Under the pieces are notes generated by a model. It had not been told where the DNA came from, did not search any database, and saw only the letters and a program-made list of their open reading frames with translations. A DNA stretch of 44,424 nt, from assembly GCA_046712485.1 (NCBI GenBank), contig JBKKCW010000053.1:1-44424 (forward strand), given 5' to 3'. Both the position numbers and the translations under genes were made by a program. Shown in pieces: positions 30,287-38,517 of this stretch. The DNA comes from Candidatus Limnocylindrales bacterium. Its GTDB lineage: Bacteria; Chloroflexota; Limnocylindria; Limnocylindrales; CSP1-4. Each line of letters starts with the position of its first letter. Position 1 is the first letter of the stretch.

Positions 30287-30317
30287 CCCCGGACATCGCG
30301 AAGAAGCGGGCTGTGAA

Positions 30318-30600
30318 CGGGACGAGTACCCGTCGCACGTCGACCCAGAGATCCGGCGGCTGGTGCGAGCCGGAACGACGACGACAGGGAATGGACCCGG
30401 GAGCCTCCGGACCGAACGCCATGCGGCACCGCCGCGGACGCCAGTAGGCTCCGGCGCAGAGCGCCAGCGATAGAGGGCAGCGCCGATCGGCCGCCGCATC
30501 AGCGGACGGCCCGTCGGTCACGGAGTGCGGCATCGCCGAATGAGGGTGGCACCGCGGAAGGCACGGCCTTTCGTCCCGGGAGACGAAGGCCGTTTTGATT
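30318..30600 (+). promoter_or_regulatory. T-box leader (tRNA-Trp responsive) controlling trpE
   Basis: Stem I elements in canonical order: GAGTA (30324-30328), AG bulge AGAGA (30347-30351), distal loop GGCTGGTGCGA closed by CCGGC/GCCGG, and specifier loop GAA-TGG-A with the Trp codon at 30392-30394. T-box sequence AATGAGGGTGGCACCGCGG lies at 30539-30557, followed by a terminator hairpin. Confidence 0.8.
30563..30596 (+). terminator. intrinsic terminator of the T-box expression platform
   Basis: ACGGCCTTTCGTC (30563-30575) pairs with GACGAAGGCCGT (30582-30593) with one bulged T and loop CCGGGA, followed by a run of Ts (30593-30596, the first shared with the stem) and GATT. It overlaps sequence that can alternatively pair with the T-box. 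Confidence 0.65.
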
Positions 30601-30614
30601 CCGAGGCCGAACGT

Positions 30615-32270
30615 ATGTCCAGCGCAGACCCGCTCAGCCTGACGCAGACCAAGCGCCTGGCTGCCAATGCCGACACGATCCTGCTTCGCGCCACGCGTCC
30701 CGCGGACCTGGAGACGCCGATCGGCGCCTTCCTGCGCCTCGACGACGGAGGCCCCGCTTACCTGCTCGAATCGGTTGAGGGCGGTGAGCGTCTTGGACGT
30801 TATTCGTTCCTCGGCGTGGGACCGCGCCGGTTGCTCGAGGTGCGCGGGGAGCAGGCGCGCATCCAGACGCGCCCGGTCACCGTCCCGGTCTACGACCCGG
30901 ACTTGCCGGTCGAGACGACGACCGTGGCGGACCCGCTCGACGCCATTCGCTCGTTCGTGCCACGTCGCCGCATCCAGCCGACCGACGGGATGCCGCGCTT
31001 CACCGGCGGCGCAGTTGGAGCACTCGCCTATGACGCGATCTCGGCGTTCGAGTCGAGCGTCCCGCTCCCGAATCGCGACCCCGTCGGTGTGCCCTTCGCC
31101 GCGTTCATCGAGACCGATCTCGTGCTCGTCTTCGATCACCTCACCCACACGTTGTCGGCGATCGCGTCCCTCCACACCGAGACCTCCAACCTGGAGGCTC
31201 GCTACCGGATCGCCGAGGCGGCCATCTTCGAAGCACTCGAGCGGACGTCCCGACCAAGCGTCTCGGAGATAAATGGCGCCAGCTCGCGGCCCCGTGACGG
31301 CGTGTCTGGACCAGCGGCGCAGCCCGGCCAGCCGATCGAGACGAGCCTGGGCCGGGAGGAGTACATCCACGCCGTCGAGCATGCCAAGGACGCAATCGCC
31401 GCCGGAGAGGCCATCCAGGTCGTGCTCGCTCGACGTCAGTCGTTCGATCTCCCGGCGAACCCGACCACTGGCGCCACGGTCGAGGGCGTTGCCCTCTATC
31501 GGGCACTTCGTCGGATCAATCCCAGCCCGTACCTCTTCTTCGTCCGCACGCCAGGCTACGAGGTGGTCGGCGCATCGCCGGAGCTGCTCCTCCAGGCGGA
31601 AGGCGATCGCCTGACCACCCACCCGATCGCGGGCACGCGGCCACGTGGCGCCGATGCTCGAGAGGATGCCCTCCTCGCCGAAGAGCTCCAGCGGGATCCA
31701 AAGGAGCGGGCCGAACACGTCATGCTCGTCGACCTCGGTCGCAACGACCTGGGTCGCGTTTCGCGCCCCGGAACGGTGACCGTCAGCAGGTACATGGAGG
31801 TCGAGCGGTACAGCCACGTCCTCCACCTCGTCAGCCACGTCGAGGGCCGCCTCAAGCCGGAGCTCGATGCGCTCGACGCGCTCCGATCGGTGTTCCCGGC
31901 GGGAACGCTATCGGGTGCCCCGAAGATCCGAGCTATGCAGCTGATCGCCGCCGCGGAGGGCGAGCGACGTGGGTTGTATGGCGGTGCTGTCGGCTACCTC
32001 GGCTACGACGGCAACCTCGACACGGCGATCACGATCCGCAGCGCCGTGCTCAAGGACGGCCAGGCGCACGTCCACTCGGGTGCCGGGATCGTGGCCGGCT
32101 CGATCCCGGAACGCGAGTTCGAGGAGACCGAGCACAAGGCCGCCGCCCTCCGCCGCGCGATCGACATGGCGGCCGGTGTCGCCGAACCGCGGCCGAGCGA
32201 GCCCGACGAGACGGTCGCGATCGAGACGGCCCCAGGCTCCAGCGCGGCCGGATCGGGTGGCGCGTCGTGA
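30615..32270 (+). CDS. trpE: anthranilate synthase component I
   Basis: LLESVEGGERLGRYSFLG, PSPYLFF and GTLSGAPKIRAMQLI motifs. ATG 30615 follows the T-box terminator; the track start at 30525 lies inside the leader. Confidence 0.95.
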   Translation: MSSADPLSLTQTKRLAANADTILLRATRPADLETPIGAFLRLDDGGPAYLLESVEGGERLGRYSFLGVGPRRLLEVRGEQARIQTRPVTVPVYDPDLPVETTTVADPLDAIRSFVPRRRIQPTDGMPRFTGGAVGALAYDAISAFESSVPLPNRDPVGVPFAAFIETDLVLVFDHLTHTLSAIASLHTETSNLEARYRIAEAAIFEALERTSRPSVSEINGASSRPRDGVSGPAAQPGQPIETSLGREEYIHAVEHAKDAIAAGEAIQVVLARRQSFDLPANPTTGATVEGVALYRALRRINPSPYLFFVRTPGYEVVGASPELLLQAEGDRLTTHPIAGTRPRGADAREDALLAEELQRDPKERAEHVMLVDLGRNDLGRVSRPGTVTVSRYMEVERYSHVLHLVSHVEGRLKPELDALDALRSVFPAGTLSGAPKIRAMQLIAAAEGERRGLYGGAVGYLGYDGNLDTAITIRSAVLKDGQAHVHSGAGIVAGSIPEREFEETEHKAAALRRAIDMAAGVAEPRPSEPDETVAIETAPGSSAAGSGGAS

Positions 32271-32956
32271 TCCTCGTCATCGACAACTACGACAGCTTCA
32301 CGTTCAACCTCGTCCAGGCATTGCAGGCCTCGGGCGCCGACGTACGCGTCGTGCGCAACGACGACCTGACCGGTGATCAGATCCGCGCACTCGCCGACGA
32401 TCCCGGGTCCGAGCTGCGCGGGATCGTGATCTCGCCTGGGCCGGGTGACCCCGGCGACGCCGGAGTGTCCGTTGAGTCGGTACGGGTCGCTGCCGAACGG
32501 GAGATCCCCCTGCTGGGCGTGTGTCTCGGGATGCAGTCGATGGCAGCCGCGTTCGGCGCCGCGATCGTCCGCGCGCCCACGCTCGTCCACGGGGAGGCGA
32601 CCGAGGTCACCCATGACGGCGCCGGTCTGCTCGAAGGCATGCCGCCGTCGTTCATGGCCGCGCGTTACCACTCGCTGGCGGTCGATCCGGCCACCTTACC
32701 GCCCGAGCTCCGGGTCACCGCGATGAGCGAGGTCGACCGAGTGGTCATGGGCATCCGTCATGTGGCACTCCCTCTGGAGGGCGTCCAGTTCCACCCGGAA
32801 TCGGTGCTCACCCCGGACGGCCCGCACCTCCTCGCCAACTTCCTCCGCCAGGCCGGGGAAGATCCGTCCAGGCTGGAGGCGGCGAGCGGGTCCTTCGCCA
32901 CGGCCGGCCTCCGGGAGCCGGCCGGCACATCGGCGGGTGGGAGCACGACACGATGA
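32267..32956 (+). CDS. trpG: anthranilate synthase component II (glutamine amidotransferase)
   Basis: ILVIDNYDSFTFNLVQ, GVCLGMQ catalytic Cys, and FHPES. GTGA overlap with trpE. Low-complexity C-terminal tail of ~30 aa. Confidence 0.95.
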   Translation: MILVIDNYDSFTFNLVQALQASGADVRVVRNDDLTGDQIRALADDPGSELRGIVISPGPGDPGDAGVSVESVRVAAEREIPLLGVCLGMQSMAAAFGAAIVRAPTLVHGEATEVTHDGAGLLEGMPPSFMAARYHSLAVDPATLPPELRVTAMSEVDRVVMGIRHVALPLEGVQFHPESVLTPDGPHLLANFLRQAGEDPSRLEAASGSFATAGLREPAGTSAGGSTTR

Positions 32957-34041
32957 GCGACACTGTTCGCGCCGCGCTCGCGACGATCGTCGAGGGCGGC
33001 ACGCTCACGCTCGACGACGCCCGCGCCGCGATGGGCGCGGTGATGGACGGGGAGGCGACACCGGCCCAGCTTGCCGCGCTGCTGATGGGGCTCCGCATGC
33101 GCGGCGAGACCGTCGATGAGCTGGCCGGGTTCGCAACGGCGATGCGCGAACGCGTCGTGAAGGTCGAAGCGCCGCACGGTGCGATCGATGTCGTCGGCAC
33201 CGGCGGCGATGGCAGCGGCACGTTCAACATCTCGACGACGGCCGCGCTCGTCGCCGCGGCCGCCGGAGTACCCGTCGCTAAACACGGCAATCGTGCGATC
33301 ACGTCGCGGGCGGGTTCCGCGGACGTCCTCGATGCGCTTGGAATACGGATCGACCACGACGCCGTGTCCGCCGGCGCCGCTCTGCGGGACACCGGGTTTG
33401 CGTTCCTCTTCGCGCCAAACTTCCACCCGGCGATGAAACACGCGGGACCTACCCGCCGCGAGATCGGGGTCCGCACGGCGTTCAACCTGCTCGGCCCGCT
33501 GACGAACCCGGCCGGGACGACGCGGCAGCTGCTGGGAGTCGGGGATGCGGCGGCGGCCGCCCGTATCGCCGAGGTGGTTCGGCGTCTCGGTACCGAGCGG
33601 ACGTTCGTCATCCATGGCGAGGGAGTCGACGAGCTGCCGCTCGATGGCAGCGGGGTGGCCTACATCGTGGCGGGTGATGTGGTGGAGCGCCACGCGATCG
33701 ATGCCGCGGCGCTCGGTTTCAAACGAGCCGCCACCAGCCGGCTGTCGGGCGGCTCAGCCGACGACAATGCGCGGATGACCGAAGCGGTCCTGCGGGGAGA
33801 GCCGGGGAGCCGGCGGGACGTCGTCCTCCTCAACGCCGGCGCGGCGTTGCTCGTGGCCGGCGTCGTGGGGCAGATGGAGGAGGGGATCGAGCGCGCGGCC
33901 CTGACCATCGACGCGGGACTGGGAGCCGAGCTCCTGGAGCGCCTGCGTGCCGAACGACGGAAGGCCGAGGCCGCAGCAAGCGGCGGAGAGGCGGTGACGG
34001 TGCCACCCCGCCCGGCAACGAGCGCCGGGGCGTCAACATGA
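32953..34041 (+). CDS. trpD: anthranilate phosphoribosyltransferase
   Basis: DVVGTGGDGSGTFNISTTAALVAAAAGVPVAKHGNRA. ATGA overlap with trpG. Confidence 0.95.
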   Translation: MSDTVRAALATIVEGGTLTLDDARAAMGAVMDGEATPAQLAALLMGLRMRGETVDELAGFATAMRERVVKVEAPHGAIDVVGTGGDGSGTFNISTTAALVAAAAGVPVAKHGNRAITSRAGSADVLDALGIRIDHDAVSAGAALRDTGFAFLFAPNFHPAMKHAGPTRREIGVRTAFNLLGPLTNPAGTTRQLLGVGDAAAAARIAEVVRRLGTERTFVIHGEGVDELPLDGSGVAYIVAGDVVERHAIDAAALGFKRAATSRLSGGSADDNARMTEAVLRGEPGSRRDVVLLNAGAALLVAGVVGQMEEGIERAALTIDAGLGAELLERLRAERRKAEAAASGGEAVTVPPRPATSAGAST

Positions 34042-36950
34042 CCATGGTCGACGCACCTCCCGCCGCCCCGCGACGACGCGCAACGTCCGCGCCGAGCGTG
34101 GTCGAACAGATCGCCGAACGTCGTCGCACGGATATTCGCGAGGAGCTTACGCACACCGGCGCGACCGCTCTTGGGGACGCCCTTCGTGCCGCGCCGCCCC
34201 CGCGGCCCGTCGCCGAGCGGCTGGCGATGCCCGGCCTCCACCTGATTGCCGAGGTCAAGCGAGCCTCACCCTCCGCCGGGGCCATCGTGGCGGCCGATGA
34301 CGACGCGGTTGCCCGTGCCCGCGCCTATGAGGCTGGCGGAGCGGCGGTTATCTCGGTGCTGTGCGAACCGCACTGGTTCGGCGGGTCGATCGACGACCTC
34401 CGACGCGTCCGCGAAGCGGTCGCCGTGCCGGTGCTGGCAAAGGACTTCGTCGTGGAGACGGGGCAGCTCCAGCTCCTCCGGGCGGCCGGCGCCGACCTCG
34501 TCCTGCTCCTCGCCGTGCTCCACCCGGCCAGACGGCTCGCCCGGCTCGTGACCGTGGCGCGCGACCTGGGGCTCGAGGCGTTCGTCGAGGCGCATGACGC
34601 CCGCGAGCTGGAACGGGCGCTCACCACCGATGCCCGGTTGATCGGGCTCAACAACCGCGACCTGCGCACGCTCCACGTCGATGTCGATCGAGCCGCGCGA
34701 CTCCGCGAGCTCGTGCCGGATGACCGGCTTGTCATCGCCGAGTCTGGTGTGCGCGATCCCTCGACGATCCGCCGGTGGCTCGCCCAGGGCTTCGATGGCG
34801 CGCTCGTCGGCGAAGCCCTGATGCGCGATCGAGATCCTGCGGCCTCCGTGGCGTCGTTCGTCGCGGCCGGCAACCCGCCGACCGACCCGTCCAACGTCGC
34901 GCGCCGTCCTTTTGTGAAGATCTGCGGGGTGACTGATGCCGACGGTGCATTGGCGGCCGTTCGTGCCGGCGTCGATGCGATCAGGCTCAACTTCGTGGCC
35001 GGGACGCCACGCGCGCTCGGCCTGGACGAAGCGGCGGAGCTGGCCCGCTTGATCCGATCGGCGGCGGGCCCGGGACGACCCCAGATCATCGCCGTGACGG
35101 CTGACGCCGGTGCCGACCTCATGGCGGCGATCGAAGCAGCAATCGATCCCGATGTCATCCAGCTGAGCGGCAGCGAAGCGGTGCAGGACGTGGCCCGAGC
35201 CCGCCGGCGAACCTGGAAGGTCCTGCACCTGCCGGGCGGTGCCAGGGGCCCCGGCCGCGACGACGTCGCTCCGGGCGATCCGGGTGATGACAGCGCATCG
35301 GTGGGCGCCGTCGTTACCCGTGGCCATGCCTACCTCGCCGGCGGGGTCGAACGGCTCCTCCTCGACACCGCCGGCGGGCCTCATCCGGGCGGCACCGGCC
35401 GCCGGGTCGCCAAACGGATCGCCGCAGCAGTCGCGCGGGAGTTGCCCGTGCTGCTTGCGGGCGGTCTCGATCCGGGGAACGTGGGTGATGCGGTGCGGGC
35501 CACCCCGCTGGTGGGCGTGGACGTCGCATCCGGGGTCGAGCGGCCGCGAGCGGCCGGAGAGCGCCCGAGCAAGGACCCGTTCCGCGTCGCGCTGTTCGCC
35601 AAGCGGGCTCGTGCCGCTCGCGACGATCGGCCCAACCTGCCATTCGCCCCGACGCCTGTGCACGCCGGCCTCCTCGACGCGGATGGCGCCGGTCGGTGGG
35701 GGATGGAGCGCGACTTCGGCGGGCGGTATGTGCCGGAGACGCTCATGGCGGCGCTCGAGCAGCTCGAAGGCGCATATGGCGCGCTGCGCCACGACCCCGC
35801 CTTCTGGGCCGAGCTCCGCGACCTCCTGGCGACGTTTGGCGGCCGACCGACGCCGATCTATCGGGCCGACCGGCTTGCGACGGCCGTTCTCGAGCAGGCG
35901 GCGCGCCTCGCCGGTGCGGGGGGCCTTGCTCTCCAGTCCCTGCGCCTGTACCTCAAGCGGGAAGATCTTGCCCATACGGGTGCCCACAAGCTCAACAACG
36001 CGCTCGGTCAGGCGCTCCTGACGCGGCGTCTCGGCAAGACGCGCGTGATCGCCGAGACCGGCGCCGGTCAACACGGCGTCGCCACGGCCACCGCATGCGC
36101 GCTCCTCGATCTGCCGTGCGTCGTGTACATGGGTGCGGAGGACATCGAGCGCCAAGGTCCCAACGTGCTCCGGATGGATGCCCTGGGGGCCGAGGTCCGC
36201 TCGGTCACGTCGGGCACGGCGACCCTCAAGGACGCGGTCAACGAGGCGATGCGCGACTGGGTCACGAACGTCGAGACGACCCATTACGTCCTCGGATCGG
36301 CGATGGGTCCCCATCCATACCCGACGATCGTCCGGGATCTGCAGCGGCGGATCGGCGACGAAGCGGCGGCCCAGCTCGACGCGGCCGCCGGGCGTCTGCC
36401 GGACCTCGCGATCGCCTGCGTCGGTGGCGGTTCGAACGCGATCGGGCTGCTCGCCCGGTTCATCGGTGAGCCCGCCGTCCGGCTCGCCGTGGCCGAGGCG
36501 GCCGGTGACGGGATGGCGACCGGCCGGCACGCCGCGGCAATCCTGGGGGGCACGCCCGGCATCCTCCACGGCTCACGCTCGCTCATGCTCCAGGACGCGG
36601 ATGGCCAGGTGATCGAGGCGCACTCCGCGTCGGCCGGCCTCGACTACCCTGGGATCGGGCCACAGCTGGCAGCTCTTGCGGAGGCGGGCCGGATCTCTGT
36701 CAGTTCGGCAACCGATCGCGAGGCCGTCGCCGCGATGCGGACGACGACCCGGATGGAGGGAATCCTGCCCGCGCTGGAGACCGCGCATGCGATCGCCGCG
36801 CTGCCAAAGATGCTCGCCGACGGGGGAACGCACGGCGACGCATGGCCCTCGGACACCCTCGTGCTGCTGGGCTTTTCCGGGCGCGGCGACAAGGACCTCG
36901 CCGCCCTGGAGCGCTTCGCCGACGTCGAGCCGTGGGGGAGTTCGCCGTGA
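34038..36950 (+). CDS. trpCFB: trifunctional fusion: indole-3-glycerol-phosphate synthase (TrpC) / phosphoribosylanthranilate isomerase (TrpF) / tryptophan synthase beta (TrpB)
   Basis: One uninterrupted 970-codon frame. TrpC (aa ~20-265): IAEVKRASPSAG, LIGLNNRDL, IAESG. TrpF (aa ~291-525): VKICGVTD, LLDTAGG..GGTG, LAGGLDPGNV. TrpB (aa ~548-970): FGGRYVPETL, LKREDLAHTGAHKLNNALGQ, ETGAGQHG, GGGSNAIG. ATGA overlap with trpD. Confidence 0.9.
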   Translation: MTMVDAPPAAPRRRATSAPSVVEQIAERRRTDIREELTHTGATALGDALRAAPPPRPVAERLAMPGLHLIAEVKRASPSAGAIVAADDDAVARARAYEAGGAAVISVLCEPHWFGGSIDDLRRVREAVAVPVLAKDFVVETGQLQLLRAAGADLVLLLAVLHPARRLARLVTVARDLGLEAFVEAHDARELERALTTDARLIGLNNRDLRTLHVDVDRAARLRELVPDDRLVIAESGVRDPSTIRRWLAQGFDGALVGEALMRDRDPAASVASFVAAGNPPTDPSNVARRPFVKICGVTDADGALAAVRAGVDAIRLNFVAGTPRALGLDEAAELARLIRSAAGPGRPQIIAVTADAGADLMAAIEAAIDPDVIQLSGSEAVQDVARARRRTWKVLHLPGGARGPGRDDVAPGDPGDDSASVGAVVTRGHAYLAGGVERLLLDTAGGPHPGGTGRRVAKRIAAAVARELPVLLAGGLDPGNVGDAVRATPLVGVDVASGVERPRAAGERPSKDPFRVALFAKRARAARDDRPNLPFAPTPVHAGLLDADGAGRWGMERDFGGRYVPETLMAALEQLEGAYGALRHDPAFWAELRDLLATFGGRPTPIYRADRLATAVLEQAARLAGAGGLALQSLRLYLKREDLAHTGAHKLNNALGQALLTRRLGKTRVIAETGAGQHGVATATACALLDLPCVVYMGAEDIERQGPNVLRMDALGAEVRSVTSGTATLKDAVNEAMRDWVTNVETTHYVLGSAMGPHPYPTIVRDLQRRIGDEAAAQLDAAAGRLPDLAIACVGGGSNAIGLLARFIGEPAVRLAVAEAAGDGMATGRHAAAILGGTPGILHGSRSLMLQDADGQVIEAHSASAGLDYPGIGPQLAALAEAGRISVSSATDREAVAAMRTTTRMEGILPALETAHAIAALPKMLADGGTHGDAWPSDTLVLLGFSGRGDKDLAALERFADVEPWGSSP

Positions 36951-37852
36951 GCACCGCGCAGACCACGCGAGACCACGTCGGCGGCGCCACGACGATGCGC
37001 GCGCCGCCGCATGAGCCCGGTACGCATGAGCCCGGTACGAACGACACAGCCGGTGCGCGCCGGATCGCCAAGGCCTTCGCCCGGGCTCGATCCAGCAATC
37101 GCACGGCGCTGATCCCGTACGTTGTCGCCGGCTACCCCGATCCCGAAACGAGCTTCGCAGCCGCTCGCGCCGCCGCCGATGCGGGCGCCGACCTGCTCGA
37201 AGTCGGGCTGCCGTACTCGGATCCGCTGGCTGACGGCGCGACGCTGCAGCGGGCGTCCGGGGTCGCGCTTGCCGGTGGCGCTACCTTCGAAGCGTCGCTC
37301 CGGCTGATCGAGCGCATCGGTGCCGCTCGCCCCGACCTGCCGCTCGTCCCGATGGCCTATGCCAACCAGGGCCTGGGTGGGGGCGATGGCGAAGCCGTTG
37401 CGAAGCGGCTCGCCCGAGCCGGGGCAGCCGGCGTCATCGTGGCCGACCTGACGCCCGACGAGGGCGCACCCTTCGAAGCAGTCGCCCGCGAGGTCGGGCT
37501 CGCGGTCGTCTACCTCGTGGCTCCCACGACGCCGCCGGCCCGAATGGCCAGGATCGCGTCCCGCAGCGGCGGGTTCCTCTATTGCGTGTCCCTCGTCGGC
37601 GTCACCGGAGCGCGCGCCGCGCTGCCCTCGACCGTCGGCCGCCTTGTCCGGGAGGTTCGAGCCGTCTCGCCGGTCCCGGTGGCGGTTGGCTTTGGCGTGA
37701 GCCGGCCAACACACGTGCGGGCGATCGCGCGCGCCGGTGCGGACGGCGTCATCGTTGCGTCCGCGCTCGTCGACGCCCTCGGATCGGATGGGCGCGACGT
37801 TGCCGCCATGGCGAGGCTCGTCGACCGTCTCGTGGCGGCCACGCAGCGGTGA
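36947..37852 (+). CDS. trpA: tryptophan synthase alpha chain
   Basis: ALIPYVVAGYPD and LEVGLPYSDPLADGATLQRA. GTG 36947 overlaps the upstream stop (GTGA); ATG 36995 is an alternative start. Confidence 0.9.
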   Translation: MSTAQTTRDHVGGATTMRAPPHEPGTHEPGTNDTAGARRIAKAFARARSSNRTALIPYVVAGYPDPETSFAAARAAADAGADLLEVGLPYSDPLADGATLQRASGVALAGGATFEASLRLIERIGAARPDLPLVPMAYANQGLGGGDGEAVAKRLARAGAAGVIVADLTPDEGAPFEAVAREVGLAVVYLVAPTTPPARMARIASRSGGFLYCVSLVGVTGARAALPSTVGRLVREVRAVSPVPVAVGFGVSRPTHVRAIARAGADGVIVASALVDALGSDGRDVAAMARLVDRLVAATQR

Positions 37853-38517
37853 CTGGCAAGCTCCGGGTCGCGATCGAGGCGACCCCGAAAAAGGCCTTCG
37901 CGACCGCGATCGACTGGCCCGGCTGGTCGCGATCGGCCAGGACGCCCGCGCTCGCGCTCGAGGCCCTGGCGGCGTACGCCCCACGGTACGCCGCCGTGGC
38001 ACGGGAGGCCGGCGAGACGTTCCCCTCGGGATCGGTAGGCGTCGGCGACCTCGATGTGGTCGAGGCGGCGGACGGGGGGAGTGGCACCGCCTTCGGCGTT
38101 CCAAGCCGGGTCACCGACGCCGACCGACGGCGTACGACAAGGGCCGAAGCTGATCGCCTGCGCCGGCTTGTCGGCGCTGCCTGGACCGTGTTCGACCGCG
38201 TTGCGGCGAGCGCGCCCGCGGAGTTGCAGAAGGGACCGCGTGGCGGTGGCCGAGACCGCGACAAGATCATCGGCCACGTGATGGAGGCCGACTGCGCCTA
38301 CGCCCGCGAGATCGGCCTCCGCCTCGGACCACCGGTACCGGGCGATCGGGATGGGATCGAAGCCTTCCGGACAGCCGTCCTCGACGCCATCGGGACACCC
38401 TCCGACGGCTCGCCCCTGGCCGACCGCAAGTGGACGGCTCGCTACGCCGCCGGCCGGATCGCCTGGCACGCCCTCGACCACGCCTGGGAGATGGAAGACC
38501 GCTCGGCGCCGGCCTGA
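37849..38517 (+). CDS. hypothetical protein, possibly DinB-like helical-bundle metal-binding fold
   Basis: GTG 37849 overlaps the trpA stop (GTGA). 222 aa with spaced His residues (HVMEAD..., WHALDHAWEMEDR) reminiscent of DinB-superfamily triads. The family call is tentative. Confidence 0.5.
   Translation: MTGKLRVAIEATPKKAFATAIDWPGWSRSARTPALALEALAAYAPRYAAVAREAGETFPSGSVGVGDLDVVEAADGGSGTAFGVPSRVTDADRRRTTRAEADRLRRLVGAAWTVFDRVAASAPAELQKGPRGGGRDRDKIIGHVMEADCAYAREIGLRLGPPVPGDRDGIEAFRTAVLDAIGTPSDGSPLADRKWTARYAAGRIAWHALDHAWEMEDRSAPA

Follow-up and report, generated by a model that had tools for sequence, protein, structure and literature searches.

The window analyzed here, a 44,424-nucleotide stretch of DNA with 71% GC, belongs to a Limnocylindria metagenome-assembled genome (MAG) from soil Chloroflexota that is divided among 404 contigs and is 77% complete. 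It contains trpCFB (34038..36950, on the forward strand, as are all features below unless stated otherwise), a single open reading frame (ORF) of 970 codons that joins the domains of the tryptophan biosynthesis enzymes TrpC, TrpF, and TrpB. The frame begins with ATG, has zero in-frame stops in the ORF listing of the window, and encodes a predicted product of 101.1 kDa whose full length is kept in relatives. The gene order around the fusion is trpE-G-D-(CFB)-A. Upstream lie trpE (30525..32270), encoding anthranilate synthase component I (Pfam Chorismate_bind, 311 bits, and Anth_synt_I_N, 105 bits); trpG (32267..32956), encoding the glutamine amidotransferase component (Pfam GATase, 188 bits) and sharing a 4-nt overlap with trpE; and trpD (32953..34041), encoding anthranilate phosphoribosyltransferase (Pfam Glycos_transf_3, 267 bits, and Glycos_trans_3N, 81 bits). 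Read from the sequence, the TGA stop of trpD overlaps the ATG of trpCFB in an ATGA at 34038-34041, and the trpCFB stop in turn overlaps a GTG start in a GTGA at 36947-36950. This GTG opens trpA (36947..37852), a separate gene for tryptophan synthase alpha that matches TIGR00262 with 227 bits against a cutoff of 102, and a Shine-Dalgarno-like GGGGGAG (36935-36941) lies five bases before it. The overlap with trpA, as GTGA or ATGA, is retained in 11 of the 13 loci of the window's family. Both overlaps are signals of translational coupling, of the fusion to trpD on one side and to trpA on the other. An earlier sequence-only reading of this DNA had proposed that TrpC, TrpF, and TrpB share a 970-codon frame and that trpA is left as a gene of its own, coupled to this frame through GTGA; the ORF listing and the Pfam and NCBIfam matches agree with the first proposal, and the overlap seen at the trpA start agrees with the second.

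The best 120 homologues of the trpCFB product among 5.8 billion proteins are 74-84% identical to it and 922-985 aa in length, and all of them contain the same three Pfam domains. These sequences stem from independent JGI, ENA, NCBI, and Logan assemblies. A second clade of at least 120 proteins (852-904 aa) has the same three domains, which brings the non-redundant fused homologues among the matches listed to at least 240, in two sets of at least 120 each; their sources are Candidatus Limnocylindria and Limnocylindrales, Chloroflexota. Within the genus of the window, at least 10 of 18 other genomes give an uninterrupted full-length match. Three few-contig genomes (G001, G015, and G016) show the gene in pieces, each break falling within a domain; the reading frame of G001, for instance, shifts at aa 310, ≈20 residues past the start of the TrpF domain. 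We considered these three as possible cases of separate genes and rejected that interpretation, given that the breaks are intradomain and that frameshift errors or pseudogenes are likely. The same fusion is found in most of the family, with no stops or frameshifts at the domain borders, which is the outcome of the comparison with relatives that the sequence-only reading had proposed as a check. Because the three domains share one frame across hundreds of independent sequences, a chance open frame is excluded, and the sequence record indicates that the fusion is not an assembly artefact.

The N-terminal domain, TrpC (aa 23-272; 34104..34853), is an indole-3-glycerol-phosphate synthase (IGPS) domain that matches PF00218 with 240 bits against a cutoff of 27 and covers positions 2-252 of the 254 in the profile. 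The central domain, TrpF (aa 291-527; 34908..35618), is a phosphoribosylanthranilate isomerase (PRAI) domain, for which the PF00697 match (70.2 bits; cutoff, 22.7) falls into two stretches at approximately aa 292-392 and 435-502 that are parted by an insertion. The C-terminal tryptophan synthase beta domain (aa 547-960; 35676..36917) scores 529 bits against TIGR00263 (cutoff, 392), with a Pfam PALP match at aa 602-934. The TrpB2 models NF009057 and TIGR01415 reach only 148 and 144 bits on the fusion, which assigns the domain to the TrpB1 type, and a Foldseek comparison with Mycobacterium tuberculosis TrpB (5tcf) gives 54% identity and a template-modeling (TM) score of 0.79. The trpCFB ORF holds the sole IGPS, PRAI, and TrpB1 domains of the assembled genome. 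A second TrpB-like match, at G000:C105:3761-4795 (L028:1501-2535), is of the TrpB2 type (NF009057, 596 bits); a TrpB2-type "TrpB-like pyridoxal phosphate (PLP) enzyme" also occurs in some sister-family genomes of 1.1 Mb, in which the trp pathway is absent.

To assess the catalytic residues, we surveyed 66 fused proteins from the two clades, considering only residues that could be mapped. In TrpC, Glu72, Lys74, Lys135, Glu184, Asn205, Arg207, and Glu235 are invariant, and Ser236 is present in 65 of the 66 sequences; we take the corresponding residues of the Sulfolobus solfataricus enzyme to be Glu51, Lys53, Lys110, Glu159, Asn180, Glu210, and Ser211. In TrpF, Cys296 is invariant, and residue 443 separates the two clades, being Asp in each of the 33 proteins of the window's clade and Glu in each of the 33 sampled from the second clade (P0281-P0398). 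The general base Cys and general acid Asp presumably correspond to Cys7 and Asp126 of the Thermotoga maritima enzyme, and the phosphate-binding GGTG motif of TrpF is retained in the window's clade. The TrpB residues His650, Lys651, Glu673, Thr674, Gln678, Ser799, Asn800, Asp869, and Glu914 are invariant as well, with Ser947 found in 65 of 66 sequences; we assume that this set corresponds to Lys87, Glu109, Asp305, Glu350, Ser377, and the GGGSN loop of the Salmonella enzyme. Judged by residue conservation, all three domains are catalytically intact.

Both junctions between the domains are gapless across the 120 homologues. The TrpC-TrpF junction (aa 273-290; 34854..34907) shows an identity of 0.6-0.76, and the connector between TrpF and TrpB (aa 528-546, DDRPNLPFAPTPVHAGLL; 35619..35675) shows an identity of 0.79-0.91. 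Scored per 10-residue block, identity is 0.6-0.76 over aa 271-290 and 0.71-0.95 over aa 501-560, and that of the junctions exceeds the identity of much of TrpC and TrpF. The ratio of nonsynonymous to synonymous substitution rates (dN/dS), pooled over pairwise comparisons of 13 genes of the window's family, is 0.27 for TrpC, 0.27 for the TrpC-TrpF junction (aa 266-290), 0.31-0.38 for TrpF, 0.21 for the TrpF-TrpB junction (aa 506-548), and 0.14 for TrpB. Because the dN/dS of the junctions is 0.27 and 0.21 and their conservation is gapless, both are coding sequence held under purifying selection as part of the fusion. The sole variable, gapped segment of the fusion is instead the insertion within TrpF (aa 399-425; 35232..35312), for which the gap fraction is 0.36-0.76 and the identity 0.03-0.23 over aa 401-420, and the dN/dS is 0.59. 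The second fused family and P0130, a compact 818-aa protein with the same TrpC-TrpF-TrpB (C-F-B) architecture, have a far shorter insertion or none.

An AlphaFold2 (AF2) monomer model built from a shallow alignment of 66 sequences has a mean predicted local distance difference test score (pLDDT) of 80.6 and a predicted TM score (pTM) of 0.63. The pLDDT exceeds 90 for TrpC and for TrpF outside the insertion, where it falls below 50 at residues 402-411, and the last TrpF helix (aa 514-526) is predicted with confidence. The TrpC-TrpF junction is modeled as ordered, with helices at 267-278 and 284-289. Sequence matches in the PDB to M. tuberculosis TrpB start at aa 543-547, with residues 547-560 aligning with the TrpB N terminus. 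Since the TrpF helix ends at residue 527 and the TrpB N terminus aligns from 543-547, the true TrpF-TrpB connector can be placed at approximately aa 528-546. The sequence-only reading had described Pro/Arg/Ala-rich linkers at aa 266-290 and 505-547. Two junctions do exist there, although neither the length nor the loose spacer character holds: the first segment includes the C-terminal helices of TrpC, and residues 505-527 of the second form the last helix of TrpF. Only the window's family has the connector itself, which is 19 residues long; the last TrpF helix of the second family and of P0130 runs straight into a canonical TrpB N terminus (…GRFGRFGGRYVPE). We regard this conserved, family-specific connector as the best lead toward something beyond a plain fusion.

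Upstream of trpE, a permissive Rfam search detects two parts of a candidate T-box leader (RF00230). The stem I part (30310..30404) scores 53.9 bits (E value, 5.9e-11; model positions 7-103), and a weak match to the 3′ antiterminator/terminator part (30523..30578) scores 17.6 bits (E value, 0.13; positions 159-216). No T-box is found upstream of trpE at the Rfam gathering score of 93, probably because the wide separation of the two pieces holds the score under the cutoff. The listed trpE start at 30525 is probably too early, since it lies inside the 3′ part, and expression of the operon is probably controlled by a tRNA-Trp-sensing T-box leader. At the other end of the operon, an N-terminal extension of trpA contains a perfect 15-nt tandem duplication (37010-37039; catgagcccggtacg twice, encoding HEPGT-HEPGT); the extension precedes the TIGR00262 match, which begins at aa 44, and is weakly conserved among relatives. 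A 222-aa ORF (37849-38517) with zero NCBIfam family matches overlaps the trpA stop. On the reverse strand, a 767-aa antisense ORF (34266-36569) spans the fusion gene and is of the spurious type expected at 71% GC.

We followed the fusion through a class-wide sample of 201 genomes. The class has four main families, among them CSP1-4, with genomes of 2.4-3.2 Mb and ≈68% GC, and Limnocylindraceae, with genomes of ≈1.3 Mb (PMC13212565). The window's family (f1), probably CSP1-4, has the uninterrupted fusion in ≈50 of 61 sampled genomes at 63-77% identity, spanning at least 17 genera, and a second family (f4) has it in 11 genomes at 47-50% identity. The sister family f2, probably Limnocylindraceae, with genomes of 1.0-1.4 Mb, yields no trp match except a TrpB2-like hit in some members. 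In families f3 and f5, trpD, trpC, trpB, and trpA occupy separate frames with no trpF between trpC and trpB (loci L013, L014, L016-L019, L025, and L026); these families must carry PRAI at another site or draw on a different enzyme for the activity. At locus L015 of the same class, D, C, F, B, and A are all separate. In a tree of the TrpB domain, the class groups together with a Shimodaira-Hasegawa-like approximate likelihood ratio test (SH-aLRT) support of 92; within it, the two fused families form a clade (95) whose sister group is the unfused families (99). Because the two fused families group together in this tree, the branching fits a single origin of the fusion within the class.

Across a phylum-wide sample of 301 genomes from 168 genera, f1 and f4 are the only families with an uninterrupted full-length match. 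Two genomes of another Chloroflexota family encode TrpC, TrpF, and TrpB in one frame with a single internal TAA (G349:C45:154829-157456 and G415:C30:303899-306565) and so stand one stop codon from a triple fusion. Two genomes of the window's family also hold a second copy that resembles the fusion of f4 at 44-49% identity (G001:C10:249756-252455 and G188:C23:5-2281), of which the one in G001 is broken by TGA codons and frame changes. Such a second copy could be a contaminant of the bin, a gene gained by transfer, or a pseudogene.

To look beyond Chloroflexota, we used P0130 to scan 185,579 species genomes and obtained 80 loci spread over many phyla. The matches over residues 1-818 might suggest a very wide distribution of the fusion, an interpretation that we rejected once frame analysis resolved nearly all of them into adjacent separate genes. 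Separate, neighboring trpC, trpF, and trpB genes are thus the rule among these loci, and C-F-B in one ORF outside Chloroflexota is limited to two or three Acidobacteriota MAGs, in which the architecture arose separately. Partial fusions also appear in the scan, with C-F plus B in Thermoleophilia and Gaiellaceae and C plus F-B in a Thermoplasmata MAG (L062). Clustering at 50% identity adds a further C-F-B cluster (P0149), a C-B fusion (P0136), and several larger proteins: D-C-F-B in P0163 (1220 aa) from a Tara mesopelagic metagenome, A-F-B-D-C in P0150 (1502 aa) from a Paulinella transcriptome, and all seven activities as E-G-A-F-B-D-C in P0162 (2214 aa) from a eukaryote transcriptome. The triple fusion is one of several outcomes of repeated fusion between neighbors in the widespread trpEGDCFBA order.

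Because one frame holds three domains, each scoring above its curated cutoff, we consider it very likely from the sequence evidence that trpCFB is a genuine gene fusion translated as a single 101-kDa trifunctional polypeptide. Such a fusion would have originated when three neighboring genes of the widespread trpE-G-D-C-F-B-A order, already coupled in translation, lost the stop/start junctions that separated them. In the resulting protein, TrpF would convert phosphoribosylanthranilate to 1-(2-carboxyphenylamino)-1-deoxyribulose 5-phosphate (CdRP), TrpC would convert CdRP to indole-3-glycerol phosphate (IGP), and TrpB would join indole and serine to form tryptophan, an arrangement in which the domain order would mirror gene order and not reaction order. 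TrpB1 enzymes form dimers in which each subunit binds one TrpA and takes up indole through a tunnel. The fusion would probably likewise dimerize through its TrpB domain, with each TrpB docking one separately translated TrpA, to give a (CF-β)2-α2 complex of ≈265 kDa that would retain the α-β indole tunnel of ordinary tryptophan synthase. That TrpB tolerates N-terminal additions is shown by the curated fusions of TrpF or TrpC to TrpB and by the fused α-β chain of PDB 7A20. The main benefits of the fusion may be a fixed 1:1:1 stoichiometry, co-folding or stability, and co-localization. By analogy with the Escherichia coli TrpC-TrpF enzyme, we favor these over true channeling of CdRP or IGP, which seems less likely.

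Several observations weigh against this interpretation. The pLDDT of the AF2 model is below 50 for aa 529-568, which include the TrpF-TrpB connector, and for parts of TrpB; the low values in TrpB are explained in part by the shallow alignment, as TrpB is well ordered in crystals. The proposed domain arrangement and its compatibility with TrpA docking rest on precedent. The score of the PRAI domain is modest (70 bits), and the domain contains a poorly conserved insertion. The source genome is 77% complete, and additional stand-alone copies of the three genes are possible. Finally, 6 of the 61 genomes of the window's family, although 90-93% complete, have no match to the fusion.

The alternatives differ in how far they depart from a trifunctional polypeptide. 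The most far-reaching one adds to it, proposing that a (TrpC-TrpF-TrpB)2-TrpA2 complex acts as a metabolon in which the tethered TrpC hands IGP to the docked TrpA by proximity or along an electrostatic path, so that the last four steps are channeled and the connector becomes ordered only in the assembled complex. We regard this possibility as rather unlikely. Less probable still is that the ORF is genuine but the working enzymes are separate, arising from translation that starts internally, for instance close to the TrpB border, or from proteolysis of the connectors. The low model confidence of the TrpF-TrpB connector could mean that it is exposed, and Met556, near the start of the TrpB domain, is present in most members of the genus. 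This residue is replaced, however, by Leu, Ile, or Arg in the relatives L010, L023, and L024, and the TGGGGG before its codon abuts the ATG directly, without a spacer. We thus rejected an internal start at Met556, which the sequence-only reading had raised as a scenario that could refute the fusion; the residue is not conserved and no spaced Shine-Dalgarno sequence precedes it. Nor is there a conserved start codon at the TrpF border, where the aligned relatives have Phe, Met, Leu, Ser, or Trp. Cleavage of the connector, for its part, is at odds with its strong conservation (identity, 0.79-0.91; dN/dS, 0.21), and the second family and P0130 hold almost no connector that could be cleaved. Ribosomes that began at codon 1 would in any case still make the full-length protein.

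It is also improbable, and slightly more so, that the fusion is translated whole with one catalytically dead domain serving as a scaffold or regulator. TrpF would be the likeliest candidate, given its match of only 70 bits in two stretches around a relaxed insertion, the replacement of its catalytic Asp by Glu in all 33 second-family sequences, and the operons of another family without trpF between C and B, which indicate that PRAI activity can come from elsewhere. Cys296, Asp443, and the GGTG motif are nevertheless retained in the window's clade, the predicted fold is confident outside the insertion, the dN/dS of 0.31-0.38 points to constraint, and no other PRAI domain was found in the assembled genome. 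As for an assembly or sequencing error that hides a stop or frameshift between three truly separate genes, the chance is negligible: the MAG is fragmented and incomplete, and its GC content makes long spurious frames such as the antisense ORF common, but the same uninterrupted architecture recurs in at least 240 proteins and ≈60 genomes of two families, with junctions that lack length variation and evolve under purifying selection as part of that frame.

If trpCFB is a translated trifunctional fusion, as we propose, the pathway chemistry as known stays unchanged, and the consequences lie in annotation, evolution, and biochemistry. Hundreds of C-F-B entries in the databases are labeled only "tryptophan synthase subunit beta," yet their sequences suggest that they also carry IGPS and PRAI activities. 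Pathway reconstruction based on gene names would consequently score these Limnocylindria (CSP1-4 and the second family) wrongly as lacking trpC and trpF. For evolutionary studies, the occurrence of separate genes, a triple fusion, and pathway loss within one class offers a natural series for the fusion of operon neighbors. For biochemistry, the protein is a ready-made natural example of an IGP-producing enzyme tethered to tryptophan synthase.

The sequence-only reading had called the C-F-B combination an architecture it did not recognize. Our literature search found no paper that describes a TrpC-TrpF-TrpB protein, although an earlier mention in reviews of trp fusions is possible, and "trpCFB" appears in the literature as operon or strain notation; in sequence databases, however, the architecture is not rare. 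The fusion is matched collinearly by three curated bifunctional models, all below their cutoffs, and none describes the three-domain protein. The first is that of the E. coli-type TrpC-TrpF enzyme (PDB 1PII and 7ETX; NF006945), which has the same N-to-C order of IGPS followed by PRAI. The window protein is collinear with 7etx_A over aa 16-509 (E value, 1.7e-37) and shares with it a short TrpC-TrpF junction that is predicted to be ordered. Its 260 bits against the NF006945 cutoff of 380 do not make it an equivalog, and it differs in adding a TrpB domain, which branches inside Limnocylindria beside unfused relatives. In the E. coli enzyme, the two active sites reportedly face away from each other, and channeling is said not to have been found.

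The closest curated match is the TrpF-TrpB model NF010376, in which PRAI likewise sits on the N terminus of a TrpB1 domain; this is the best NCBIfam match of the window protein (aa 291-962; 574 bits). Fusions to the N terminus of TrpB are described in the literature, with TrpF-TrpB reported as rare in bacteria and archaea (PMC11237513). The window protein falls below the 819-bit cutoff of this model and differs from it in the extra N-terminal IGPS domain and in the family-specific 19-residue connector. TrpC-TrpB fusions (NF010375), of which P0136 is an example, also place IGPS and TrpB on one chain but have no PRAI between them, and the window protein scores 565 bits against a cutoff of 1386. 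In the fungal TRP5-type TrpA-TrpB enzymes, the fused α-β chain (PDB 7A20) illustrates that TrpB tolerates a large N-terminal domain; there, α is fused, whereas in the window α is the only activity of the last four that is left separate. The eukaryotic multidomain enzymes, which include P0150, P0162, and a multifunctional tryptophan enzyme of Euglena as cited in PMC2395257, similarly combine several pathway steps per chain and have a PRAI-to-TrpB junction, but they differ in domain order, include TrpA, and have a TrpB that branches outside the Limnocylindria clade. Overall, every pairwise fusion is already known, as are larger ones in eukaryotes, and the C-F-B protein of Limnocylindria extends the known two-enzyme fusions to a third enzyme on the same chain.

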